Positions 11,900 to 56,977 of a DNA stretch of 64,000 nucleotides are shown piece after piece. The number at the start of each line of letters is the position of its first letter. The first letter of the stretch is position 1. A model generated the notes under the pieces. It worked only from the letters and a program-made list of their open reading frames with translations, did no database searches and was not told where the DNA came from. The stretch lies in contig ONQT01000006.1 of NCBI GenBank assembly GCA_900320045.1, positions 19,633-83,632 of the forward strand, read 5' to 3'. A program made the position numbers and the translations under genes. Source of the stretch: an uncultured Prevotellaceae bacterium. Lineage in GTDB: Bacteria; Bacteroidota; Bacteroidia; Bacteroidales; Bacteroidaceae.

Positions 11900-14368
11900 A
11901 TGAAACGCATACTCATCGTCCTCACCATCCTCTTTTCCGTTAGCTGCGGCTCGTTTGCAGCACGTTATCGGTTGTGGTATGACCGTCCTGCTATGACGTG
12001 GACACAGGCATTACCCATCGGCAATGGCATCATGGGTGGCATGGTGTTTGGCACACCTGCCGTAGAGCGCATCCAACTGAATGAGGAAACGCTCTGGGCC
12101 GGACAACCTAACAATGTCATCAACCCCTCGGCGAAAGCCAATCTGCCCAAGGTACGCCAGCTCATCTTCGAAGGCAAGTACAAGGAAGCACAGAAGTTGG
12201 CCGATGACAAGGTGATGCCTCATTCTGCAGGCAAGAATATGGGTATGCCTTATCAGCCTTTCGGCGACGTCTACATTTCCATGCCCGGCCACGCCGACTA
12301 TAGTGACTACGAGCGCTGGCTGGACCTAGACAGCGCCAAGGTGGTGAGCCGCTATGTCTCCAATGGCGTCGAGTACCGCCGCGAGGTAACGGCGCCCATG
12401 GGACCGATTCCCGTCGTCACCGTTCACCTAACAGCAAACCGACAAGGAATGCTGACCTTCACCGCCCACATGACATCACCCCACGAGAACGTACTTATCG
12501 GTACCGACACCAACGCCACCTTATATAATAATGTGTCCGACGGTTCCCCCGTCGGAGACGCCTATCTCCACGGTGTTTCTTCCAAGCACGAGGGTCTGAA
12601 GGGCAAGGTTCGCTTTATGGGGCGCATGGCCGTTGAGACCAACGGCGGGACAGTAACCTGCTCGAATGGTGTCATCAGCGTGACTGGGGCCGACGAGGCG
12701 GTGGTGTTCGTTGCCATCGGCACGAACGTCAAGAATTACAAGGACATCACCGGCGACGAGGTTGCACAGGCCAAGGAACGCTTGGAAGCAGCCCGCAACT
12801 GGGGATACGGTCGTCTGCAGACCGTCCATACCAATGTCTATACGGAATACTACAACCGCGTCAAGTTGGACTTGGGCGAAGACCACTACCCTCGCCTGTC
12901 GATGGACAAGCGCATCAAGCAGTTCAGCGCCACCACTCCCAAGAGCGCTCCTACTCCCGACGGTTCTCCGTCAAGCCTCCCCGACAACCACCTCGTAGCC
13001 ACCTACTTCCAGTTCGGACGCTATCTCCTCATCTCGTCGTCACAGCCCGACAACATGAACCCCGCCAACCTGCAGGGCATCTGGAACGACAAGATGTTTC
13101 CCTCGTGGGACTCGAAATACACGACGAACATCAATCTGGAGATGAACTACTGGCCGGCAGAGGTGACGAACCTCTCGGAACTGAACGAGCCGCTGTTCAA
13201 ACTCATCCGTGAAGTAAGCGAACAAGGCAGGCAGACGGCCCGCGACATGTATGGTGCCGACGGATGGGTGCTGCATCACAACACGGACCAATGGCGCATC
13301 ACCGGTCCTGTAGACCATGCCCAGACGGGATTGTGGCCGATGGGCGGTGCATGGCTATGTCGCCACTTGTGGGAACATTATCTTTATACGCGCGATGAAG
13401 CCTTCCTTCGTCAATACTACCCTATCATGCTGGGCGCTGCCACCTTCTTTACGCAGACCCTGCAGAAACACCCGACCAAAGGCTGGCTGGTAGTCTGTCC
13501 GGGAGAGTCGCCAGAGCATGGCGGCAAGGGTCGCGGCACAGCGCTGGATGCCGGTGTAACGATGGACAACCAACTGGTGCGTGAACTCTATACCAACGTC
13601 CTCGAGGCTGCTAAGATTCTGGGCGACGACAATGCTCAATTGTCAATCATCAAAGCTCAATTGAAAGAGCTTGCTCCCATGCAGATAGGCAGCTGGGGAC
13701 AGTTGCAGGAATGGCTCGACGACCTCGACGACCCGAAGGACGACCACCGTCACTTCTCGCACCTCTATGGGCTGTTCCCCTCTAACCAGATATCCCCCTC
13801 TAAGACACCCGACCTTTGGGAGGCTGCCCGCAAGTCGCTAACGGCCCGTGGTGACGTCTCGACAGGCTGGAGCATGGGCTGGAAAGTATGCTCATGGGCC
13901 CGACTGTTAGACGGCGAGCATGCCTACAAGCTCATCAGGGACCAGTTGACGCTGACGGCCGACACCTTCCTGATATTCGGTGCCACGAAGCAACGTGGCG
14001 GCACGTATCCCAATATGTTCGACGCCCATCCGCCCTTCCAGATTGACGGCAACTTCGGCTGTACGGCAGGTATCGCCGAGATGCTGATGCAAAGCTACGA
14101 CGGCTTCATCTACCTGTTGCCTGCCCTTCCTGCTGTATGGAAGGACGGCAGCGTCAAGGGACTGGTGGCCCGCGGCGACTTCGAGATAGACATGAACTGG
14201 AAGGACGGCAAGCTGACACAGGCCGTGGTGCGCTCGAACAAGGGCGGCAATTGTCTGCTGCGCAGCAACACGCCACTTAAGGGCAAAGGACTGAAAAAGA
14301 CAAAAGAAACAAACCTGTACACGCTGTCTACCAAGGCGGGCGTGGCATATACGATTCAAGGACTATGA
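11900..14368 (+). CDS. GH95 alpha-L-fucosidase/alpha-L-galactosidase
   Basis: [48 protein letters not shown]. Confidence 0.93.
12530..12556 (+). repeat. In-frame hairpin element, family A
   Basis: AATGTG TCCGACGG TTCCC CCGTCGGA, read as NVSDGSPVG. Confidence 0.75.
12929..12975 (+). repeat. In-frame hairpin element, family B
   Basis: ...ACT CCCGACGG TTCT CCGTCAAG, read as [16 protein letters not shown]. Confidence 0.75.
13636..13663 (+). repeat. In-frame heptamer microrepeat (TCAATTG-like x4) in GH95
   Basis: TCAATTG TCAATCA TCAAAGC TCAATTG. Confidence 0.7.
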
Positions 14369-15822
14369 AGAAACTTATGATGATACTGAGCCTTGCGTTG
14401 CTGACGGTGTCGGCACAGGCAGGCAAGCCATGGGACAATGGCAAACTTTGTGTTTCGGATAACCAGCGTTATCTGCAGTTTGAGAACGGACAGCCCTTCT
14501 TCTGGCTGGGCGAGACGGGATGGCTGTTGCCGGAACGTCTGGACCGCGCCGAGGCGGAGTGGTATCTGCAGAGCTGCGCCAAGGCGGGCTACAATGTCGT
14601 GCAGGTGCAGACCATCGACGGTGTTCCTGCCTATAACATCTACGGACAGATGTCGAACCCTGACGGCTGGAACTTCAATGACATCAACAAGAAGGGTGTC
14701 TACGGCTATTGGGACCACATGGACTACATCATCGACCGTGCCGCCGACCACGGCATCTATATCGGCATGGTGTGCATCTGGGGCGGACTGATAAAGGACG
14801 GCAAGCTCTCTGTAGAGGATGCCAAGAAATACGGCACGTTCCTCGCTAACCGCTACAAGAACAAGCCCAACATCATCTGGTTTATGGGCGGCGACATTCA
14901 GGGCGACATCAAGCCTGAGGTCTGGGAGGCGCTGGCCACCACCATCAAGAGCATCGACAAGAACCATATCATGACCTACCACCCCCGTGGTCGCTATACG
15001 TCTGCCCGCTGGTGGAGCAAGGCCAAGTGGCTCGATTTTCACACCTTCCAGAGCGGACACCGTCGCTATGGACAGCGCATGGGTAATGCCGACTACCCCA
15101 TTCCCGACAATACGGAGGAGGACAACTGGATGTATGTGGACTCCACCTGGAAGTACAATCCCATCAAGCCCGTGCTCGATGCAGAGCCCAGCTATGAGGA
15201 TATTCCCATTGGTCTGCACGACCCCAACGAGGGTCGCTGGCAGGACTATGACGTGCGCCGCTATGCCTACTGGAGCGTCTTTGCCGGAAGCTGCGGACAC
15301 ACCTACGGCCACAACGCCATCATGCAGATGCTGAAGCCCGGCTATCCCACCTCGTACGGCGATGCCGGCGACGTGAAGACCTGGTATCAGGCCCTGCACG
15401 ACCCTGGGTTCTCGCAGATGCAGTACCTGAAGTGCCTCATCCTGTCGTTCCCCTACTTCGAACGTGTGGCTGACCAGAGCATCATTCACGACAACGGTGT
15501 ACAGTACAACCGACTCATTGCCACACGAGGCAACGACTACCTGTTGGTGTACAACTACAACGGCAACAGCATGAAGGTTGACCTGACGAAGATCAGCGGC
15601 TCCAAGAAGAACGTCTGGTGGATGACGGCCGCTACAGGTAAGCTGAAGTACCTCGGCGAATTTGACTCCAAGGTGCTCACCTTCCGCTATCACCCCCAGT
15701 CGGCCCGCATCGAGGACGGTGTCCTCATCGCCATCGACACCGCTAAGGACTATCTGAAGAAGGACCAGACGAATCTCTCGCCCGACGGCTACAAGGCCAA
15801 AGCCCGCGACCTGAACGAGTAA
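14365..15822 (+). CDS. GH140 apiosidase-like protein (DUF4038 plus C-terminal beta domain)
   Basis: [54 protein letters not shown]; signal peptide. Confidence 0.88.
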
Positions 15823-15864
15823 CGAAATTCGCAACCATAACAAACGAAGCGAAGAATTAACACT

Positions 15865-16521
15865 ATGTCTGACATAAAGATTAAGTTCAGCGTGCATCAG
15901 AATCCGCTGAAAGACGAGCAGGGACGGACGACGTATCAGGTGCGGCAGGATACGCATGGAACGGTAACGACCAAGATGCTGGAGGAAGAACTGGCCCTGC
16001 ATGGTTTGCAGAACAACTTCACGCTCGACGGAGCCGTGGAATGGCTTAAGAAAGTGATGGTATCGCACATGAACTTCAACCGTCGTATACACGTGGAGGG
16101 CCTGGGAATGTTCTCGCTGAGCATTGGTCTGAAACCCGTCGTCGACGAGGACGGCACCGTACACAAGCGCATCGTTACCGACCCCAACGACATTACGGGC
16201 AACGAGGTGGAGGTGACGGGCATTAACTTCGTGCCCGACAAGGAATTCCTGGACTATGCCAAGCAGCAACTCTTGTACTTCGAGAACTCTGCTCCGCGCG
16301 GTTTCGTGGGACATTCGGAATGGCACGAGGACGAAAAACTGAGACAGGAAGTTATCGGATATCTTACAGAGCACAAGTATCTTACATGTCCCCTCTTCAT
16401 GAAGTTGTGGCACGTTACGCGCTACAAAGCAGAGCAGCTATTAGCACAACTCTGCGAAGGAGAGGACGCCATCCTGGTGCGCCAGAAGCAAGCAAACACG
16501 ATTTTCTATTATCTGAAGTAG
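15865..16521 (+). CDS. Bacteroidota HU-like DNA-binding protein with C-terminal winged-helix-like domain
   Basis: HU-type core RRIHVEGLGMFSLSIG ... INFVPDKEF; C-terminal YLTEHKYLT..F..L....RYKA...L..L. Confidence 0.78.
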   Translation: MSDIKIKFSVHQNPLKDEQGRTTYQVRQDTHGTVTTKMLEEELALHGLQNNFTLDGAVEWLKKVMVSHMNFNRRIHVEGLGMFSLSIGLKPVVDEDGTVHKRIVTDPNDITGNEVEVTGINFVPDKEFLDYAKQQLLYFENSAPRGFVGHSEWHEDEKLRQEVIGYLTEHKYLTCPLFMKLWHVTRYKAEQLLAQLCEGEDAILVRQKQANTIFYYLK

Positions 16522-16523
16522 GA

Positions 16524-16709
16524 CTCACCGACAGTATCAAGAGATCTCACCAACTACGAAGTGGCACTTAAGCAATCGCAAAGTGCCACTATTACTATCT
16601 TCCGACTATAGTCAGCAAACCTTCCGACTATAGTCAGCACAACTTCTGACTATAGTCGGAAGAATGGCAAGATTACTTCTTAAGGAGGCGGATGTTGCTT
16701 TTCAAGGAG
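16524..16709. repeat. 22-bp-period mosaic repeat array downstream of the HU-like gene
   Basis: CTCACC(G/A)AC at 16524/16546; AAGTG(G/C)CACT at 16559/16581; CTTC(C/T)GACTATAGTC at 16599/16621/16643; CTTyTyAAGGAG at 16676/16698. Confidence 0.85.
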
Positions 16710-16724
16710 ACTTTGCTTACTAAT

Positions 16725-16750
16725 CAGCCTTGACGGGAAGGCTGTTCTTT
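16725..16750 (+). terminator. Probable intrinsic terminator
   Basis: CAGCCTT-GACGGG-AAGGCTG followed by TTCTTT. Confidence 0.55.
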
Positions 16751-16763
16751 GGGGGCCTGCGAG

Positions 16764-16786
16764 GACAAAAACGGCTGCCGTCCGTC
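16764..16786 (+). promoter_or_regulatory. Putative alternative-sigma promoter GACAAAAACG..CCGTC
   Basis: Second copy of the cluster motif, 23 bp upstream of the GH78-GH33 ATG. Confidence 0.55.
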
Positions 16787-16809
16787 TTTATGTTAGTAAA
16801 GAAGAACCG

Positions 16810-19800
16810 ATGAAAAAACTACTGACAATCATGTGTCTTGCGCTACTGCCGATGCTGGTGGCAGGCAAGCAGAAAGCAAGAGTTGCGGACGTCAGCCTCT
16901 CGTGGCTGAGAGTAGAGAATATGGACTGTCCTCTGGGCATTGATACCGACACGCCTCGGTTCTCGTGGCTCATCAGAAGCGAGAAGCAGAACGTGCGCCA
17001 GACGGCCTACCAGATCATCGTCTCTACCGACAAGGGCGAGATGTGGAACTCCGGCAAGGTGGACTCGGACCAGCAGTTGTGGGTGCGCTACGGCGGACAG
17101 CCGCTGAAGAGTGCCACGCAATGCACGTGGAAAGTGAAGGTCTGGACGACGGCCGGCGAGAGTGCGTGGAGCGAGGAGGAGCGCTTCGGCATCGGCCTGC
17201 TGAAGGAGAGCCACTGGACAGGGCGCTGGATTGGTCTGGAGCGGCTGATGCCCGGCGAGGAGCGAGGACTGCACACCCGACTGGCAGCCCGCTACGTCCG
17301 AAAGGAGTTCGAGCTGGACAAGCCCGTCAAGCGCGCCATCGCCTATGTGGCCGGCATCGGACTGCATGAGTTGCATGTCAATGGAGTCTGTTACAATGCC
17401 AACGTCCTGATGCCCATGCCTACGGACTACCGCAAGACGGTGCTCTACAACACCTACGACATCACGGGAGGACTGAAGGAAAAGAACTGCATCGGACTGG
17501 TGCTGGGCAACGGCCGGCTGTTCCCCATGCGCCAGAACAAGCCCTACAAGGCACCGGTCTTCGGACTGCCGAAGTGTCGCATCAACATCCTCATCGAGTT
17601 TACCGACGGCACCACCAAGCGTATCTCAACTGACGAAAAATGGAAGATAACGGCCAATGGCCCTATCCGCTCGAACAACGAATACGACGGTGAGGAGTAT
17701 GATGCCCGTAAGGAACTGACGGGTTGGGACAAGCCAGGCTACGACGACCATACCTGGCTACAGGCCGAGCGTACCGCCATACCGCTGGGCACCCTTCGGG
17801 CGCAGATGGCGCCGGGCATGGTGATAGATCCCCAGACACAACAGCCGCTGGTGGTCAGCCAGAAGCAGAATGCCCAAGGCAAGCAGGTTGTCATCTACGA
17901 CTTCCACCAGAATATGGCGGGATGGATAGGCTTTACACCCACAGGCCATGCCGGCGACACCATCCGCGTAAAGTATGCCGAGAAGCTCAACGCCGACGGC
18001 ACGCTGTACCTCGACAACTTCCGCGACGCCCGCTCGGAGGACATCTACGTCTGCGGTACTGTGCCCGCTGGTTCGGCCAGCGGGATTGCCGAATGGCACC
18101 CCACCTTCAGCTATCACGGTTTCCGCTACGCTCAGGTGACGGGACCGGCCAAGGACCTGCGTGCCTATACCGTCAGCGACGATATGGCAACGACGGGAAC
18201 TTTCGAGTGCTCGGATGCCACGCTGAACCAGGTGATGAAGAATGCCTGGTGGGGCATCTATTCTAATTATAAAGGTATGCCCGTCGACTGTCCGCAGCGC
18301 AACGAGCGTCAGCCGTGGCTGGGCGACCGCACCATGGGCTCGCTGGGCGAGAGCTTCGTCTTCAACAACGAGCGGCTGTACACCAAGTGGATGCGAGACA
18401 TCTGTGAGTCACAGCGCGAGGACGGTGTCTTCTGCGACGTGGCTCCCGCCTACTGGAACTACTACAACGACGACGTGACATGGCCTGCCGCCCTACCCTT
18501 CGGTTGCGACATGCTGTATCGGCAGTACGGCAACCGCGAAGCCATCGACAAGTCGTATCCGTATATCAAGCGCTGGCTGCAACACCTGATGGCTGACTAT
18601 CTGAAGGACGGCATCATCACCAAAGACACCTATGGCGACTGGTGCGTGCCGCCCGAGAAGCTGGAGCTGATCCATTCGCAGGACCCGGCCCGCAAAACGG
18701 ACGGCAGCCTCATCTCGACGGCCTACGTCATCCGCGTCCTGCAACTGCTGGAGCAATGGGGATGCGAGGCCGACACCTGGAAACCTATTCGTCTGAAACT
18801 CACCGATAGCTTCAACCGCCACTTCCTGACCGTCAAGGAAGGAACGTCACCGCGGCCGGGGCATCCATTGTACCCCGACTCCGTCTTCTACGGCAACAAC
18901 ACCGCGACCGCCAACCTGCTGGCATTGTCGTTCGGCATCGTTCCCGAGAAGTACCGCCAAGAGGTGACGAAGAATGTCGTTGAGAACATCATCGTCAAAA
19001 ACAATGCCCACGTGCCCTGCGGCGTCATTGGCATCTCCTGGCTGCTGCGCGGCCTCTCAGACAATGGTTTCAGCGACATCGCCTACATGATTGCCACCCA
19101 GCACAGCTATCCCTCCTGGGGCTATATGGCCGAGAATGGTGCAACGACCATTTGGGAGCTCTGGAACGGCGACAAGGCCTCTCCCCGCATGAACAGCGGC
19201 AACCACGTCATGTTGCTGGGTGACCTGATTACCTGGTGCTACCAGTATCTGGGCGGCATCCGTACTGTGGGCAGCGGTTCTGCCGTTGCCTATAAGCGCT
19301 TTATTCTCAAGCCCGACTTCAGCATCCAGGACTGCTCGTTTGCCAACGTCAGCTACCTTTCTCCCTATGGCACGATTATCAGCAACTGGAAAAAGACACT
19401 ACAGCATGTTGAGTGGGACGTGCAGGTTCCCTGCAACACCACCGCGGTCGTCTGCTTCCCCGACGGCACCACCCAGGAAATCGGTTCCGGCAAATACCAC
19501 TTCTCCTGCGACATCCCGACGGCTCACCCCGCCATCCTGAAGGACGAGTTCCTGTACGAGAAAGCCTCTTTCCCGCAATGTCACTCGGCCAGCATCGTGG
19601 AGACCAAGAAGGGCGACCTCGTCGCCACTTATTTCGGCGGCAAGCATGAGCGCAATCCGGATGTCTGCATCTGGGTGAGCATCAAGAAGAAAGGCAGTAA
19701 CGAATGGAGTAAGCCCATCCTCGCCGCTGACGGTGTGTTTACATTAGAAACAAAAGAAGCCGAAATCGCAGGCATCAACGCTGAAAGCACTCCTGCTTCT

Positions 19801-20724
19801 GAAGGCCCCATGCGTAAAGGAACTGCCTCGGACAACCAACGCCGCAAGGCCTGCTGGAACCCCGTCCTCTGTGAAATGCCCAACGGTGAACTCTGGCTGT
19901 TCTTCAAGGTGGGTCTGAAGGTATCCGATTGGACAGGATGGCTCTGCAAGTCGAAGGACGGCGGAAAGACCTGGAGCGACAAGGAGCCCCTGCCTAATGG
20001 CTTCCTCGGCCCTATCAAGAACAAGCCCGAAATCATCGACGGCCGTCTGCTCTGTCCCTCCAGCACGGAGGATAACGGTTGGAAGTTCCACATGGAAATC
20101 TACGACCTGAAGACCAAGCAATGGAAGTACGTCGGTCCCGTTGCCGCCGAGCTGGCCATGCGCTGCGAAAACATGCACGCCGGCAGCGGCTCCACCACCA
20201 CCACTCCCAACGCTTCTCCGTCGGGCAAGAAGGAAGACATCGAGGCCCCTGATGCCGGAGGTGTCGCCGCCAAGGACGGTCGCCACCCCATCGATTGCAT
20301 CCAGCCTTCCATCCTCAAACTTAAGGACGGTCGCCTACAGGTATTGATGCGCACCCGCAACGGCAAGATAGCCACCTCCTTCTCCAGCGACAACGGCGAC
20401 ACCTGGACCAACGTCACACTACTCAATGTGCCCAACAACCAGAGCGGCACCGATGCCGTCACGCTGAAGGACGGACGGCACGTGCTCATCTACAACGACT
20501 TCGAGACGCTGCCCGGCACCAAGAAAGGAGTCCGCACACCGCTTTCTATCGCCATCAGCGACGACGGCACACACTGGCGCCACGCCTTGACGCTGGAGGA
20601 TTCGCCCATCAGTCAGTACTCCTACCCCTGCATTATCCAAGGGCGTGACGGCAAACTGCATGCCGTCTACACCTGGCGCCGACTGCGCATGGCCTATAAG
20701 GAAATAGACATCGACAAACTGTGA
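16810..20724 (+). CDS. GH78 alpha-L-rhamnosidase fused to a GH33/BNR sialidase-like domain (BT1013-like)
   Basis: PVDCPQRNERQPWLGD, GATTIWELW, MNSGNH; C-terminal Asp boxes SKDGGKTWS, SSDNGDTWT, SDDGTHW and YSYP. Confidence 0.92.
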   Translation: MKKLLTIMCLALLPMLVAGKQKARVADVSLSWLRVENMDCPLGIDTDTPRFSWLIRSEKQNVRQTAYQIIVSTDKGEMWNSGKVDSDQQLWVRYGGQPLKSATQCTWKVKVWTTAGESAWSEEERFGIGLLKESHWTGRWIGLERLMPGEERGLHTRLAARYVRKEFELDKPVKRAIAYVAGIGLHELHVNGVCYNANVLMPMPTDYRKTVLYNTYDITGGLKEKNCIGLVLGNGRLFPMRQNKPYKAPVFGLPKCRINILIEFTDGTTKRISTDEKWKITANGPIRSNNEYDGEEYDARKELTGWDKPGYDDHTWLQAERTAIPLGTLRAQMAPGMVIDPQTQQPLVVSQKQNAQGKQVVIYDFHQNMAGWIGFTPTGHAGDTIRVKYAEKLNADGTLYLDNFRDARSEDIYVCGTVPAGSASGIAEWHPTFSYHGFRYAQVTGPAKDLRAYTVSDDMATTGTFECSDATLNQVMKNAWWGIYSNYKGMPVDCPQRNERQPWLGDRTMGSLGESFVFNNERLYTKWMRDICESQREDGVFCDVAPAYWNYYNDDVTWPAALPFGCDMLYRQYGNREAIDKSYPYIKRWLQHLMADYLKDGIITKDTYGDWCVPPEKLELIHSQDPARKTDGSLISTAYVIRVLQLLEQWGCEADTWKPIRLKLTDSFNRHFLTVKEGTSPRPGHPLYPDSVFYGNNTATANLLALSFGIVPEKYRQEVTKNVVENIIVKNNAHVPCGVIGISWLLRGLSDNGFSDIAYMIATQHSYPSWGYMAENGATTIWELWNGDKASPRMNSGNHVMLLGDLITWCYQYLGGIRTVGSGSAVAYKRFILKPDFSIQDCSFANVSYLSPYGTIISNWKKTLQHVEWDVQVPCNTTAVVCFPDGTTQEIGSGKYHFSCDIPTAHPAILKDEFLYEKASFPQCHSASIVETKKGDLVATYFGGKHERNPDVCIWVSIKKKGSNEWSKPILAADGVFTLETKEAEIAGINAESTPASEGPMRKGTASDNQRRKACWNPVLCEMPNGELWLFFKVGLKVSDWTGWLCKSKDGGKTWSDKEPLPNGFLGPIKNKPEIIDGRLLCPSSTEDNGWKFHMEIYDLKTKQWKYVGPVAAELAMRCENMHAGSGSTTTTPNASPSGKKEDIEAPDAGGVAAKDGRHPIDCIQPSILKLKDGRLQVLMRTRNGKIATSFSSDNGDTWTNVTLLNVPNNQSGTDAVTLKDGRHVLIYNDFETLPGTKKGVRTPLSIAISDDGTHWRHALTLEDSPISQYSYPCIIQGRDGKLHAVYTWRRLRMAYKEIDIDKL
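18058..18084 (+). repeat. In-frame hairpin element, family A
   Basis: ACTGTG CCCGCTGG TTCGG CCAGCGGG, read as TVPAGSASG. Confidence 0.8.
19264..19290 (+). repeat. In-frame hairpin element, family A
   Basis: ACTGTG GGCAGCGG TTCTG CCGTTGCC, read as TVGSGSAVA. Confidence 0.8.
20194..20225 (+). repeat. In-frame hairpin element, family B
   Basis: ACCACCACCACT CCCAACGC TTCT CCGTCGGG, read as TTTTPNASPSG. Confidence 0.8.
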
Positions 20725-22365: not shown

Positions 22366-25155
22366 ATGAAGAGATTATCTGTATTTTTAGCGCTTGCATG
22401 CCTTGCCACCTTCGCTATGGCACAGCGAGTCAGCATCCTGACGGGAAAGAAAGCGTCAGCACGTGAGCAATATGCGGCAGAGTACCTGCAGAAGAAGCTG
22501 CAGGAGATGGGCTGTACGGTCTCCGGCAAGAAGGCCGACTACAACATCGTGCTGTCGAACGCTAACAGTGGTGCTGCCGAAGGGTACACCCTCACCAAGG
22601 ACAAGAAAAGTATCAAAGTGGTGGGCAATGATGCCACGGGTGTCATCTATGGCTGCGTGGAGCTGGCAGACCGCATCCGACAGGCCGGCAGTTTCGTTCA
22701 GTATGTTGCGATGCCATCGCCACAAACCATCCAGGAAGCACCAGGAATGGTGATGCGCGGCACCTGCATAGGTCTGCAGAAGACAGTCTATCTGCCCGGC
22801 CACGGCGTCTACGAATATCCCTATACTCCCGAGAACTTCCCCTGGTTCTACGACAAGGCAGAATGGGTGAAGTACCTCGACATGATGGTAGAAAACAAAT
22901 ACAACTCGCTCTACCTCTGGAACGGACATCCCTTTGCCTCGCTGGTGAAGCTGAAGGACTATCCCTTTGCCCTGGAGGTAGACGACGAGACCTTCAAGAA
23001 GAACGTGGACATGTTCTCCTTCCTCACCCATGAGGCCGACCGCCGCGGCATCTGGGTCATCCAGATGTTCTACAACATCATCCTGAGCAAGCCCTTCGCC
23101 GACCACTACGGTCTGAAGACACAGGACCGCCACCGTCCCATTACGCCGCTCATCAGCGATTATACCCGCAAGTCGATTGCTGCCTTCATCGAGAACTATC
23201 CTAACGTGGGTCTTCTGGTCTGCCTGGGTGAAGCCATGGCGACCATCGACGACGACGTGACGTGGATGAAGGAGACCATCATTCCCGGTATCAAGGACGG
23301 TCTGGCAGCATCCGGCCGTGCCCCCTTCCCCACCACCACTCCCGCCGTTTCTCCGTCGGGTCCCACCACCACTCCCACCGCATCTCCGGCGGGTCCCACC
23401 ACCACTCCCGCCGCTTCTCCGGCGGGTCTCCCCCCCATTGTCCTGCGCTCTCACGACACCGACGGCCCGCTGGTGCTGAAAGAGTCGCTACCCCTCTACC
23501 CCAACATCTACACCATGTCGAAGTACACGGGAGAGTCGTTGACCACCTATACCCCCGGTGGCCCTTGGGGGGAGACGCATCAGCAGTTGGCCGCTGCCGC
23601 CCCCGTACATATTGATAATGTGCACATCCTTGCCAACCTCGAGCCATGGCGCTGGTCGTCACCATCCTTTACGCTGAAGACCGTCCAAGCCATGCACCGT
23701 GCTCACCATTCCAAGGGCTTGCACCTCTATCCGCAGGCCAGCTACTGGGACTGGCCCTATACGGCTGACAAACTGCCGAACGGTGAGCGACTGAGGCAGT
23801 TGGACCGCGACTGGATGTGGTATCAGGTATGGGGTCGCTACGCCTGGAACGACCAGCGAGGAGCGTTGGTAAATAACGGTTTGCCCACTGCCGAGCGCAC
23901 GTATTGGAAGAAGGTTCTTGCCGACTACTACGGCATAGATACCATCGCTGCTGGTCATGTGCTGAATGCATACGACGAAGCTGGCGAGATAGCCCCGAAG
24001 CTATTGCGCCGTTTCGGTATCACAGAAGGTAATCGCCAGACGCTGTTGCTCGGTATGACGATGGGCGAACTGGTGAATCCCTATAAGTACACCATCTATC
24101 CCGGCTTCTACGAGAGCTGCGGCCCCGAGGGCGAGAAGCTCATCGAATATATTGAAAAGGAACACAAGGGTCTGCCGCATCATGGCGAACTGCCCTTCGA
24201 CATCGTCGACCAGTGCGTGAACCACGGTGACATGGCGCTCGTGGAGATGGGGGCTGCCGCTGCCAAGCCGACGCGCCATGCCGACGAATACCAACGGGTA
24301 TGGAACGACATGCTGTGCTATGCCTCCTTTGCCAAGGCGTTCCAGCTAAAGGTGCGCGCTGCCGCCGAAGTACTTCGCTATAAGTGGACGCAGGACATCA
24401 GCCACCTGGAGACGGCTCTCGTCTGGCTGGAACAGAGTCTCAGCATCTGGTATGACCTGAGTCGCATGACGGACGAATGGTATCTCTATGCCAACTCCAT
24501 GCAGACGGCCCAGCGCCGCATTCCCGTTGGCGGCGACGGCGGCAAGATGAAGACGTGGAAAGAGCTGGCCGTGGTCTATCAGGAGGAGGTCGATGCCTTC
24601 AAGGAGAACATCGAGAAACTGAAGCATCCTGCTCCCGCCTCAGCCATCAAGATACAGCCCCTGCAAGCCGCCAAGGTCACCTATAACGGCACCATGGTTC
24701 CGCTGAAGAAGGGTGCCATCGTTTTTGAAAACCGTCCCGACACTCCCGTCGACAGTCTCGCTCCCGAGCTGGCAGGTCTGCAGGCCTTGGTGCTCAACCG
24801 CGACACAACCCGCATCGTCGGAACGACCATCCAGTTTGAATGCGACAAACCCGTCAAGGTGCTTGTGGGTCTCTTCAAAGATGACGACAAGAAGTTTGCC
24901 AAGGCTCCCAAACTGGAGATTGATGCCACAGGCAATGAATACGGTCAGGCTGAGCCTGTCCTTACCAATGCCATCAGTATCGTCCAGATGCCCAAGGTGA
25001 ACATCCACCAATATGCACTTCCCGCTGGTCGCCATACGCTGCGACTGCCCAAGGGCATCCTCATGGTGGCAGGCTTTACCAACGACAACATCAAGGCGCG
25101 CGACTGCGGCCTCAACGGTCCCTCGGGAGAAGTAGACTGGCTATTCCAGAAATAG
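22366..25155 (+). CDS. GH138 alpha-galacturonidase-like protein (BT0997-like)
   Basis: Signal peptide; MRGTCIGLQK, YEYPYTPENFPWFYD, LWNGHPF, VCLGEA, HLYPQASYWDWPY; upstream of the GH137-GH2 gene. Confidence 0.8.
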   Translation: MKRLSVFLALACLATFAMAQRVSILTGKKASAREQYAAEYLQKKLQEMGCTVSGKKADYNIVLSNANSGAAEGYTLTKDKKSIKVVGNDATGVIYGCVELADRIRQAGSFVQYVAMPSPQTIQEAPGMVMRGTCIGLQKTVYLPGHGVYEYPYTPENFPWFYDKAEWVKYLDMMVENKYNSLYLWNGHPFASLVKLKDYPFALEVDDETFKKNVDMFSFLTHEADRRGIWVIQMFYNIILSKPFADHYGLKTQDRHRPITPLISDYTRKSIAAFIENYPNVGLLVCLGEAMATIDDDVTWMKETIIPGIKDGLAASGRAPFPTTTPAVSPSGPTTTPTASPAGPTTTPAASPAGLPPIVLRSHDTDGPLVLKESLPLYPNIYTMSKYTGESLTTYTPGGPWGETHQQLAAAAPVHIDNVHILANLEPWRWSSPSFTLKTVQAMHRAHHSKGLHLYPQASYWDWPYTADKLPNGERLRQLDRDWMWYQVWGRYAWNDQRGALVNNGLPTAERTYWKKVLADYYGIDTIAAGHVLNAYDEAGEIAPKLLRRFGITEGNRQTLLLGMTMGELVNPYKYTIYPGFYESCGPEGEKLIEYIEKEHKGLPHHGELPFDIVDQCVNHGDMALVEMGAAAAKPTRHADEYQRVWNDMLCYASFAKAFQLKVRAAAEVLRYKWTQDISHLETALVWLEQSLSIWYDLSRMTDEWYLYANSMQTAQRRIPVGGDGGKMKTWKELAVVYQEEVDAFKENIEKLKHPAPASAIKIQPLQAAKVTYNGTMVPLKKGAIVFENRPDTPVDSLAPELAGLQALVLNRDTTRIVGTTIQFECDKPVKVLVGLFKDDDKKFAKAPKLEIDATGNEYGQAEPVLTNAISIVQMPKVNIHQYALPAGRHTLRLPKGILMVAGFTNDNIKARDCGLNGPSGEVDWLFQK
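23329..23427 (+). repeat. 3 x 33-bp tandem copies of the family-B hairpin element, in-frame
   Basis: PTTTPAVSPSG PTTTPTASPAG PTTTPAASPAG; units start at 23329, 23362, 23395. Confidence 0.92.
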
Positions 25156-29418: not shown

Positions 29419-32319
<2,901 letters not shown>

Positions 32320-45604: not shown

Positions 45605-48600
45605 ATGAAAAGAATGCAATATCCCCTTTGGACGACAGTTCAGCAATCGTTCCGCATGCTGACGACCGCCCTGTTATTCATGCCTCTGACCATGATGGGA
45701 CAATCTTACGAATCGCTTTGGAAGCAGGTAGAACAAGCCCAAAACAAGGACTTGCCCCAAACTGCCATGACCCAATTGAGGAAGATGGAGACCAAAGCCA
45801 CCAAGGAAAAGGCTTACGGCTGGCTGCTGAGGTCGAGCTTGCTATACGCCAAGCTGCAGGCCGAGGTGGCTCCCGACTCGTTGGCACCCGCCGTCAAGCG
45901 ACTGGAACAGCGCGAGCAGGCTGCCAAGGACGTTGCCCTGAAAGCGGTCTACGACGTCGTGCTGGCAAAGGTCTACGAGACCAACCAGCAGTTGACGGAC
46001 AATTGGAAAGCACAAAGCGACAGCTACCGCCGGCAGGCCATGACGCGCCCCGACGTGTTGGCACAGACCCAGATTGACAGCTATGTTCCCTTCGTCGTCA
46101 AGGAGAAAGATAGCGAGTGCTTCGGTCACGACCTGCTAAGCGTCGTCGGCATGGAGCTGAACGAATGGAAGTGGATGAGCAATTATTACAGCCAGATTGG
46201 CAACCGCCCTGCAGCCTGTCTTTCTGCATGTCAAGCGGTCAGCACCATCGAGGGTATGGACTCGCTGCTGAACATCTACGGCAACCTGCCTGAAGCCGGC
46301 GAGATTGCTATCAAGCGTTATGAGCTCATGTCTGACGACCGCTTTACCGCTGCCGAAAAGAACAGTTGGATAGAGCAGTCTCTCAACCGCTGGGGAACGT
46401 GGAAGCGCTCCAATATCCTGCGCAACGCCCAGACAGCGCTCAACAATCCCACCTACCAGGTGCACATTGACAATACGGTTCACGAGGTTGGAAAACCGCA
46501 GATGATACAGTTGACCAACCTGCGCAATATCGAGCGTCTGACCATGCATGTCTATCGCACTACATTGGCTGGCGACACCAAGCTGAACATCAACAACAAG
46601 GACGACCTGAAACAAATCCAGAAGGTTTCGACGTTGCTGAATGAGCATACCAAGACGCTATCGTTTACAGGACATGCCAGCTATGACTTCTTCCGCGACT
46701 CGCTCGAGTTGAACAGTCTGCCGGCAGGTGTCTATGTGCTGATGTTCCGCACCGAACAGGACACACAAGTGAAGCGCATGCTGTATTTCGTTTCGGGCAT
46801 CCGTGTCATCTCACAGGCTCAGCCCCACAACATGATGCGCTATGTCGTGGTCGACGCCACCACGGGGCAACCGGTTCCGAATGCCCAACTGCGAATGACA
46901 TTCCATAAGGGTAATGATACGCATTACAAGACGCTGGCATGCAATCAGCAGGGCGAGGTCACGTACAACTACGAGAAGGAACGTCCCAGCAGCGTCTTTG
47001 CTTTTACATCAACCGACAACTGCTGTCCGGAGTTCAACAACTACGGCAACTACAGCTACTACGAGCGACAGTATAACGTGGAGCATACCACGCTTTTTGC
47101 CGACCGCAGCATCTACCGCCCAGGTCAGACCGTTCATGTTGCAGCTATCGCATGGAAGGAAGTGTCGGCAACGGAGAATGCGGCCATCAGCAGTAAACAG
47201 CTCACCCTGACGCTGCGCGACGCCAACTACAAGGTCGTCAGCGAGCAGCAGGTGACGACAGACCGCTACGGCAAGTGTGCGGCAGACTTCACGCTGCCTA
47301 CCGGACAGCTCAACGGACACTTCACCATCCAATGCCAAGGAGCCAGCGTCGCTTTCAATGTGGAAGAATACAAGCGTCCTACCTTCCAAGTGGAGTTTGC
47401 CGACTACAAGCAGTCTTATCACAACGGCGACACCATTCAGGTGCAAGGCAAGGCGCTGACCTATGCCGGTGTTCCTGTCCAGGGCGCCAAGGTCAAATAT
47501 ACTGTCAAGCGTCGCGTGGCATTTTGGTGGATGTCGTATTCCCGCTACTGGAACAATGGCTATATCGGTCACAGCCTCAAGGATGAGGTCTTGAACGAGG
47601 GTGAAGCCGTCACGGAGGAAGACGGAACGTTCTGCGCCAACGTGCCGATGGTGCTACCCACAGACTTGGGCAATCGCAGCATGTTCTATCACTTCGTGGT
47701 AGAGGCTGATGTCACCGACCAAGGTGGCGAGACCCACAGCGGTACGCTGTCATTGCCATTGGGCAACAAGTCGACCGTGCTTACATGCGACATTCCCCAG
47801 CGGATTCGCAACGACCAGATGCCGCAGATAACCTTCACACGCCGCAATGCCGCTGGCAACGAGATAGCAGGAACGGTACGCTATCGCATGGACAATGGCA
47901 AGTGGAAGGAGTGCGCCGCCAACGCTCACCTCTCACCTCTCACCTCTCGCCTCTCAAGCGGTCAGCATCGCATAGAAGCCATCTGTGAGCAGGACACCCT
48001 CAACACCTCTTTCGTCGTCTTCTCCCTAAACGACAAGAAACCTGCCGCAGAGACACACGACTGGTTCTATGTCTCCGACACGCAGTTCCCCAACGACGGC
48101 AAACCCGTCACCGTCCAGGTGGGATCGTCTGATCCGAATCTCCACATTGTCTATGGCATCTATGCCGGTGACCAGCAGATAGAAAGCGGTGCCGTCGATA
48201 AGGATGCCGCACTCATCAACCGCAAGTTCACCTACAACGAGAGCTATGGCAACGGTCTGTTACTGACTTTTGCATGGGTCAAGGATGGCCAGTGCTATCG
48301 TCACAGCCAGTTCATCCAACGCCCCATGCCCGACAAACAGCTGAAGTTGCAGTGGGAGACATTCCGCGACCGACTGACGCCTGGTCAGCAGGAGGAATGG
48401 CGACTCACCATTAAGAAACCCGACGGCACAGCTGCCGACGCCAGTTTCATGGCTGTGCTCTACGACAAGAGTCTGGATGCCATCAAACAGCACCACTGGT
48501 CGTTCACCCCAACCTCCTATCTGCCGCAGCCCGGCACTTCCTGGCAATGGCGCTCCTGGAGCAGCATCGGACTGAGCGGTGCGAAGCACTACCAGTCGCT

Positions 48601-54297: not shown

Positions 54298-54323
54298 ATT
54301 GTAACATACTCCAATTGCCCAAT

Positions 54324-54359
54324 AAATTGTAAATCGTAAATTGTCAAATTGTAAATTAC
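54324..54359 (+). repeat. Heptamer repeat (AAATTGT)n containing the probable TTG start of the next gene
   Basis: AAATTGT AAATCGT AAATTGT C AAATTGT AAATTAC. Confidence 0.8.
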
Positions 54360-56412: not shown

Positions 56413-56416
56413 CACC

Positions 56417-56470
56417 CCCATGAGGCCCATGAGCCCCATTAGTCCAATTAGCCCCATTAGCCCTATGATT
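56417..56470 (+). repeat. 9-mer repeat x6 ending in the folA start codon
   Basis: CCCATGAGG CCCATGAGC CCCATTAGT CCAATTAGC CCCATTAGC CCTATGATT. Confidence 0.88.
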
Positions 56471-56977
56471 ACCATTATCGCTGCCGTGGCCCGCAACCGC
56501 GCCATTGGCCAAGAGAACAAACTGATATACTGGTTGCCTAACGACCTGAAGCGCTTCAAGGCGCTCACCTCGGGTCATACCATCGTGATGGGCCGCAAGA
56601 CCTTCGAGTCGCTGCCCAAGGGTGCGCTGCCCCATCGCCGCAACGTGGTGATAAGCCGTGGCGACAGCGTGCAGAACTGGCGTAGCGACGACGGCACCAC
56701 GACACTGGAGGTGTTCCGCTCGCTGGACGAGGCCTTGAAGAGCTGCCGTCCCGACGAGGACATCTACGTCATTGGCGGTGCCAGCGTCTACGAGCAGGCG
56801 ATGGCCGTTGCCGACCGCCTGTGCCTGACGGAGATTGACGACGTGCCCGAGCAGGCCGATGCCTTCTTCCCCGACTACAGCACGGGGTGGCACATCACAC
56901 AGAAAGAAGCGCATCCGAAGGACGAGCGTCACGCCTTCGAATACGCTTTTACGGATTACGAGCGGGACCCACGGTGA
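56465..56977 (+). CDS. folA: dihydrofolate reductase
   Basis: MITIIAAV, W.LPNDLKRFK, MGRKTFESL, LPHRRNVVIS, IGGASVY, DAFFP. Confidence 0.95.
   Translation: MITIIAAVARNRAIGQENKLIYWLPNDLKRFKALTSGHTIVMGRKTFESLPKGALPHRRNVVISRGDSVQNWRSDDGTTTLEVFRSLDEALKSCRPDEDIYVIGGASVYEQAMAVADRLCLTEIDDVPEQADAFFPDYSTGWHITQKEAHPKDERHAFEYAFTDYERDPR

Follow-up and report, generated by a model that had tools for sequence, protein, structure and literature searches.

The window, i.e. the whole stretch of 64,000 nucleotides that was analysed, carries an inserted segment of ~990 bp between two host genes, GH140 and GH78-GH33. The order inside the insert is a short leader, a gene coding for an HU-HIG protein fused to a winged helix-turn-helix (HU-HIG-wHTH), a repeat array and a hairpin. 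The features are the following.

14365..15822, + strand: GH140, apiosidase-like host gene, upstream (Pfam PF13204)
15823..16809, + strand: inserted segment of ~990 bp, from the GH140 stop to the GH78-GH33 start; 28/29 relatives empty
15865..16521, + strand: HU-HIG-wHTH gene, 218 aa (P0001; Pfam PF18291, E 5e-14)
15877..16266, + strand: HU/IHF-like domain, residues 5-134, with long beta-arm and predicted homodimer interface
16321..16518, + strand: C-terminal winged helix-turn-helix, residues ~153-218 (AlphaFold2 model, Foldseek)
16524..16554, no strand: left flank, distal 22-bp duplication CTCACC(G/A)AC, copies at 16524 and 16546
16559..16590, no strand: left arm, two AAGTG(G/C)CACT units, copies at 16559 and 16581
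16604..16613, no strand: core palindrome 1, GACTATAGTC
16626..16635, no strand: core palindrome 2, GACTATAGTC
16648..16657, no strand: core palindrome 3, GACTATAGTC
16673..16709, no strand: right flank 22-bp duplication CTTyTyAAGGAG, copies at 16676 and 16698
16725..16750, + strand: terminator-like hairpin with a short T run, tentatively assigned
16810..20724, + strand: GH78-GH33, rhamnosidase and BNR sialidase-like host gene, downstream (Pfam PF17389, PF13088)

The HU-HIG-wHTH gene is the single long ORF of the insert, and neither the ORFs nor the Pfam matches of the ~990 bp indicated an encoded transposase or integrase. The sequence-only reading had taken gene and array for an inserted cassette, and the search for an empty site bore this out: in 28/29 GH140-bearing relatives the GH78-GH33 match was found -7 to 355 bp from the GH140 stop, which is too short for the HU gene, while the remaining relative carried a different gene at this junction. 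Homologues of the two host genes are presumably the neighbours BT1012/BT1013 in B. thetaiotaomicron, and the empty sites of congeners lead to the same conclusion. The empty-site relatives are only ~75-86% identical, too distant for resolving the junctions or a target-site duplication. The cassette also occupies the GH140/GH78-GH33 junction in loci L070, L094 and, as seen on the downstream side, L097, and ~21 distinct neighbourhoods, made up of varied host genes, were counted among 33 homologue loci examined. The cassette inserts and gets lost at many sites; its content alone does not explain this mobility, and trans factors or recombination must be needed.

The near-identical strain L094 contains, between GH140 and the HU gene (L094:1622-2196), a DUF4160/DUF2442 gene pair and a separate promoter-like element, and because of this extra insertion the GH140/HU junction is considered a hot spot. 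GH140/GH78 junctions without the HU cassette harbor other short repeat families, namely CCCCTCCC-type palindromes and 9-mer arrays (L041, L042, L045, L053, L054, L056, L057, L066 and L068). To the ORF upstream of L071, a RAYT candidate, Pfam assigned no family and the candidate was dropped.

The P0001 protein scored 52.8 bits against PF18291 (cut-off 26.2), while TIGR01201 remained under its cut-off (29.2 vs 68.6). The AlphaFold2 model (pLDDT 87) consists of an HU/IHF body followed by three C-terminal helices with a beta-wing. A Foldseek search with this model, which returned no row below E 1e-3, gave ArsR-type wHTH repressors as top rows for the C-terminal domain (rmsd 1.7 A over 60 residues, E 8e-3) and IHF/HU chains as best rows for the HU part; rows for WD40/WRAP structures were discarded as no stretch passed alone. 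The homodimer model scored 0.68, the best control being 0.00, with a contact agreement of at least 49% and a pLDDT of at least 69 among the runs; the score mark used is reached by 20/30 solved homodimers and 1/23 single chains. A homodimer is therefore supported by modelling, and the pass may reflect likeness because HU dimers have already been solved.

Comparisons with homologues gave dN/dS values of ~0.11-0.25 for the P0001 gene, indicating purifying selection, and its divergence was ~5x that of the GH140 neighbour (dN 0.225 vs 0.041 for L070). The gene is covered by contigs from RNA libraries. All four sequencing runs consist of contigs, from which RNA start, end, strand and level are not readable, and three RNA contigs end in or before the array, possibly as a repeat-related assembly effect. 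The available part of Burroughs et al. (2017, PMC5499826) describes a wHTH-fused subclade of HU-HIG with the same architecture, fast divergence, many paralogues and no conserved neighbours, considers HU-HIG proteins unlikely as sequence-specific transcription factors and proposes for them a role in conflict. P0001 is a member of this subclade, in agreement with its domain, its wHTH, its diverse neighbours and its divergence.

The array in the window and at homologous loci

Analysis of the nucleotide sequence between 16522 and 16712 indicated a lag-22 identity of 93/169 (55%), every other lag from 5 to 49 giving 18-33%. All four motif pairs and the five phased palindromes reported in the sequence-only reading were recovered: CTTC(C/T)GACTATAGTC is found at 16599, 16621 and 16643, the five dyad centres are spaced by 22-22.5 bp and the GACTATAGTC units 1 and 3 are mutual inverted copies. 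The sequence flanking the GACTATAGTC block shows a periodicity of its own (28/55, p=1e-4, and 19/31, p=6e-5). The motifs had been called unrelated, and here the reading needs correction, as the GTGCC half of AAGTG.CACT is an arm motif which is shared clade-wide and keeps its register relative to the cores; the arm GTGCC at 16583-16587 is located 23.5 bp from the first core centre, which is the clade-wide register. The CTCACC(G/A)AC duplication is found in loci of this species (L094, L099) and is not clade-wide. Since the AAAGTGCCAC of the window fits the arm register, the apparent mosaic can be described as core, arm and lineage-specific slippage copies. As to the terminator that had been read behind the array, a hairpin is present, but the scan found 2 such sites vs 1.3 expected, which is not above chance, and in L099, a near-identical locus, the hairpin is broken up. 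A sigma-70 promoter scan was set aside as uninformative for Bacteroidetes.

Homologues were recovered by an alignment scan of genome contigs, a single-protein scan having given nothing; 55/85 returned loci, with 33-92% protein identity and many near-duplicates, were examined, fragments and more distant hits being left out. Exactly four GAC-N4/5-GTC cores spaced by 22 bp (in a few cases 23) were identified in 45/54 loci with at least 200 nt downstream, so that the periodicity which the sequence-only reading had looked for beside homologues was indeed found there. The other nine loci showed five cores (1), three (3), two (2), one (2) or none (1). The cores form a family of GACTnnAGTC palindromes with the unit consensus YYGACTAWAGTCRR, and core positions 1, 2, 7 and 8 were invariant in 188/188 units. 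The window carries three cores and L099, with 91% protein identity, carries four; two to four occur among strains of this species and a 22-bp unit is missing from one sequencing-run contig, which indicates that the core number slips in 22-bp steps.

The flanks of 24 non-redundant tetrads (<85% protein identity) are also 22-periodic, with an identity of 0.43-0.49 vs ~0.26. Of 36 GTGCC arm words, which occur in 11/24 non-redundant loci, 34 have a distance of 0.5-1.5 modulo 22 to a core centre, and those left and right of the tetrad are in mirror orientation. Members of this clade which are intact and have no array are L306, L309, L140 and L141, while a single core was found in L308 and L310.

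In the L306 sub-branch, which has no tetrad, the gene converges tail-to-tail on a VapE-like/DUF3874 gene (with Pfam confirmation for L306 only), and the downstream sequences of L308, L310, L141 and L309 resemble that of L306; in L308 and L310 the lone core sits in a terminator loop. In the downstream flanks of L011, L025, L026 and L022 the arrays are composite: a 22-bp block gives way to a 23-bp block that has another palindrome, which in L011, L025 and L026 is of the GTTGTACAAC type.

Arrays and protein phylogeny across the family

PF18291 matched 41/41 family genomes searched, with up to 20 matches each including classical HU. From 150 listed of 305 matches a sample of 130 loci was drawn, the rows skipped being mostly at contig edges; the wHTH class was assigned by a profile built for this work, in one case by eye, duplicates and flanks <250 nt were dropped, and periodicity was scored blind with an array threshold of 36/63. 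Among the matches listed, a 21-23-bp array was found in 41/50 wHTH-fused genes (40 upstream, 1 downstream), a count to which no p-value is attached as kin are not independent, and in 23/83 HU-HIG genes without wHTH. The controls gave 53/1464 ordinary genes of this genome (3.6%) and 0-2/50 at control lags. Still among the matches listed, 29/41 arrays of the blind set consist of exactly four units and 24/41 exceed the 95th percentile of the palindromicity null. A -7 promoter-like element was called for 22/40 upstream arrays of the same listed matches, and in 9/22 of these the first unit starts 13-14 nt past it. Most upstream tetrads are sharply bounded.

The phylogenetic tree constructed with 112 proteins, a data set other than the blind one, showed that a single clade of 47 proteins (support 0.99) holds 38/38 downstream arrays and that another (support 1.0) holds 13/15 21-bp arrays, with motifs differing by branch; no array was detected in 18/110 wHTH genes. 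Paralogues in a single genome, for example G428, carry different motifs. The position, the period (21, 22 or 23 bp) and the motif of the array follow the protein tree, and distant HU-HIG-wHTH clades have tetrads of other motifs, mostly just past the promoter. Such shared clade patterns can come from co-inheritance, because gene and array are physically linked. The correlation between motif similarity and protein distance was weak (rho 0.14-0.32; 0.00-0.15 among distant pairs), and a partial Mantel test for the motif-reading domain did not single out the wHTH.

A second HU-HIG-wHTH paralogue of the window genome (L001; G000:C44:6635-7024) carries about three 21-bp-spaced units right past a promoter-like element, an array under threshold in the tree data set. 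Upstream arrays of 22 or 23 bp, mostly with four units, were also seen at short HU-HIG genes without wHTH (L157, L161, L162, L245, L246, L259, L265, L266 and L270), which suggests a possible reading of the motif by the HU arms.

Gene-less arrays and alternative explanations

The window genome (G000) contains gene-less GACTATAGTC arrays at C38:41047, C38:124407 and C62:8517 and a single core at C35:22587; 23 lag-22 arrays belonging to several motif families were counted in this genome. The sequence-only reading had expected the 22-bp period to accompany homologous genes and to be weaker in other intergenic regions; arrays were found beside the homologous genes, whereas the period is not unique to the locus, with 67 lag-22 events genome-wide vs 5-19 at lags 17, 19, 20, 23, 25 and 26. 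The other 22-bp families of this genome matched no HU-HIG flank among 290 hits, save one inside a gene, so that membership is not shown for every 22-bp array.

Of 201 genomes of the genus, 7 showed the strict triple-core pattern (GACTNNAGTC) and 13 a gene assigned to this clade at E 1e-39 or better. The seven pattern-positive genomes comprise 3 with the gene, G307 with a deleted gene and 3 without a gene of this clade. The ten gene-positive genomes without the strict pattern include degenerate tetrads (L302, L303, L307), some upstream arrays, and none or a single core in L306, L308, L309 and L310. Dispersed intergenic copies matching the gene-linked copy were identified in G000, G229, G298 and G307; those of G298 and G229 share motif variant and flank with the gene-linked tetrad of their own genome and sit just past stop codons or between convergent genes. 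In carrier genomes gene-less copies outnumber gene-linked ones and both orientations occur. At the pepD-corA site L285 has the tetrad alone while L072 has gene and tetrad, and in G307 an internally deleted gene stands beside the tetrad, which indicates that at least some orphan arrays are relics of gene loss. The gene-less arrays behind carB and rnfA are missing in 4/4 and 3/3 relatives, respectively, where downstream synteny is broken and the sites are thus not clean empty sites.

Further intergenic 22-bp families of G000 have the motifs CTCCA..TGGAG, GGACTA/TAGTCC, TCCGAA, GCGCCCG and TACCAA (examples at C35:83407, C46:11353, C50:257, C60:21676 and C55:604), and 11-bp arrays occur as well. 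A repeat of ~33 bp lies in frame in several glycoside hydrolase ORFs, coding for peptides like TTPDASPSG, at window positions 12536, 12956, 18064, 20200, 23329-23428 (three tandem copies at 23329), 26103, 27336, 28272 and 28953, with related copies on contigs C22, C35 and C37; it resembles a mobile palindrome inserted into coding sequence. Tandem arrays of heptamers and 9-mers are located at window positions 31413-31442, 47925-47956, 54323-54357 and 56416-56477, and the most enriched periods of the genome are lags 7, 14 and 21.

The reading we consider probable is that the cassette consists of the HU-HIG-wHTH gene and its own binding array. The arrays could instead be REP/MITE-like dispersed repeats moved in trans, the HU-like gene being a non-binding cargo which inherits the adjoining array. 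This is in line with the surplus of gene-less copies behind stop codons or between convergent genes, the 3/7 array-positive genomes without a gene of this clade, the families lacking an HU partner in the sample and the different short repeats at the same junction in relatives. It is nevertheless an unlikely explanation in view of the 41/50 wHTH-fused genes with arrays (among the matches listed) vs the 3.6% background, the clade-specific motif, the constant four-unit design and the often identical place past the promoter, and L285/L072 and G307 identify some orphans as relics of gene loss. A different host protein, either classical HU/IHF or an unknown factor, might bind the array, with HU-HIG acting as partner or as decoy, for instance against phage DNA-mimic proteins. 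One host protein would not easily read the arrays, because the paralogues of G428 differ in motif within the same genome, and we hold this to be quite improbable even though the protein changes ~5x faster than its GH140 neighbour, arrays also stand beside HU-HIG genes without wHTH, and a conflict role has been proposed (Burroughs et al., PMC5499826, in its available part).

An action as RNA was also considered, the sequence-only reading having envisaged a processed 3' RNA. The transcript would then form an extended hairpin in the 3' UTR or give rise by processing to a small RNA, with a period of 22 nt equal to two A-form turns, and this RNA would confer stability on the mRNA or bind the protein. 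The array region folds well (z -5.3), as palindromic repeats must, and the flanks are mirror-symmetric about the tetrad with 50% Watson-Crick pairing vs 25%. The mirror pairing is equally good after a shift by 22, however, and the spacers match each other better in direct (0.77) than in inverted orientation (0.57). G-U and A-C counts on the sense strand were 69 vs 92 inside, 93 vs 128 in the flanks and 120 vs 130 in the upstream clades; the lack of a G-U excess points to sites in double-stranded DNA rather than RNA and disfavours the processed RNA. Gene-less copies occur in both orientations, and the array region matched no Rfam family at threshold, sub-threshold miRNA matches being the only ones returned. 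The array thus appears to behave as double-stranded DNA, and we give the RNA explanation very little credence. Least credible is a ruler-like enzyme that measures and duplicates arbitrary 22-mers beside the gene to produce the mosaic, another suggestion of the sequence-only reading. The non-palindromic flank 22-mers do differ by lineage at a lag-22 identity of 0.43-0.49 vs ~0.26 and their copy number varies between strains, but the cassette encodes no such enzyme, core motif and four-core count persist at protein identities as low as 33%, one conserved flank motif keeps a fixed register and the upstream tetrads are mostly sharply bounded; ordinary 22-bp slippage suffices for the differences between strains with 2, 3 or 4 cores.

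Proposed mode of action and meaning

The suggestion of a protein-plus-array module, or phased binding platform, gains support from the conserved tetrad and from the family-wide link between gene and array, binding itself being deduced from sequence. In the own-array reading, a two-fold symmetric dimer would bind each two-fold symmetric core (YYGACTAWAGTCRR in this clade), and four dimers placed 22 bp (~two turns) apart on one face of the helix would cooperatively bend or wrap ~90 bp, the complex being extended by the GTGCC arm units in the register of the cores. In other clades the tetrad just past the promoter would serve as an autorepression operator. The array of the present clade lies downstream and hence cannot be a simple operator; past the stop codon the tetrad would most likely serve as an insulator, as a roadblock to transcription or as a sink that takes up its own protein. 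The strain-specific extra 22-mers of the flanks would be slippage by-products inheriting the period. As a tentative and more general proposal, which is possible though doubtful, the HU-HIG expansion of Bacteroidales could represent enzyme-less selfish cassettes whose private, rapidly re-specified nucleoid proteins would place four dimers on their own four-site, ~90-bp address, in a nucleosome-like wrap that controls cassette expression and seeds gene-less roadblock copies over the chromosome, so that orthogonal protein-address pairs diversify on the HU fold.

REP/BIME and REPIN-RAYT elements are intergenic palindromes found past stop codons or between convergent genes, with gene-linked and dispersed gene-less copies; some BIMEs bind IHF, and REP/REPIN sequences carry a GTAG or CGTC tag next to the hairpin and a linked HUH (Y1) transposase. 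The dispersed copies of the cassette, which match the gene-linked variant and lie past stops or between convergent genes, are similar in this respect. Unlike REPIN-RAYT, the linked gene codes here for a non-catalytic HU-wHTH and not for an HUH (Y1) transposase, and the units, four as a rule, are short palindromes phased at a constant 22 bp, with a unit consensus YYGACTAWAGTCRR that lacks the GTAG or CGTC tag. In plasmid Rep iterons, ParR-parC and TubR-tubC an adjacent protein binds phased repeats cooperatively and exerts autorepression. The cassette shares with these the DNA-binding gene next to helically phased repeats, own-site binding being here presumed, and differs as a stand-alone chromosomal cassette that lacks a replicon, an NTPase and a partition partner, with palindromes instead of direct iterons and with an HU/IHF fold. 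With IHF and the sequence-specific HU/IHF members P0001 shares the core fold and the predicted dimer, while it differs from IHF by the extra wHTH and by clade-private palindromic tetrads vs single asymmetric sites. CRISPR-like arrays and structured RNA are unlike the array, whose spacers are alike and which showed no Rfam family at threshold and no G-U excess.

As far as the available part of its description goes, the nearest described repeat of Bacteroidales is BrickBuilt of Porphyromonas gingivalis (Klein et al. 2015, PMC4596501), a minisatellite/MITE with leader, tail and terminal inverted repeats, of which BrickBuilt_14 adjoins a PF00216 DNA-binding gene. Both are dispersed intergenic tandem repeats of similar period (BrickBuilt 23 nt), whereas motif and period differ and the part of that paper available mentions no link to HU-HIG. 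Likewise the corresponding part of PMC5499826 mentions no flanking DNA element for the HU-HIG wHTH subclade, in which a clade-specific phased palindrome tetrad is found here at nearly every gene. The arrays are not described in the accessible portions of PMC5771137 and bioRxiv 2024.06.24.600358, and the literature searched, with subscription papers mostly outside the search, yielded neither a description of the link between gene and tetrad nor a demonstration of HU-HIG function.

The tetrads are most likely the binding sites of the adjacent protein and would provide a concrete, testable DNA target for the HU-HIG family, a family of little-understood DNA-bending proteins whose genes are carried by gut and rumen Bacteroidales. 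Gene-adjacent tetrads may also account for some of the 21-23-bp arrays that lie between genes in Prevotella-like genomes. Should the binding be confirmed, gut Bacteroidales would possess many native orthogonal repressor-operator pairs, and sequence specificity would have evolved repeatedly on the HU fold.
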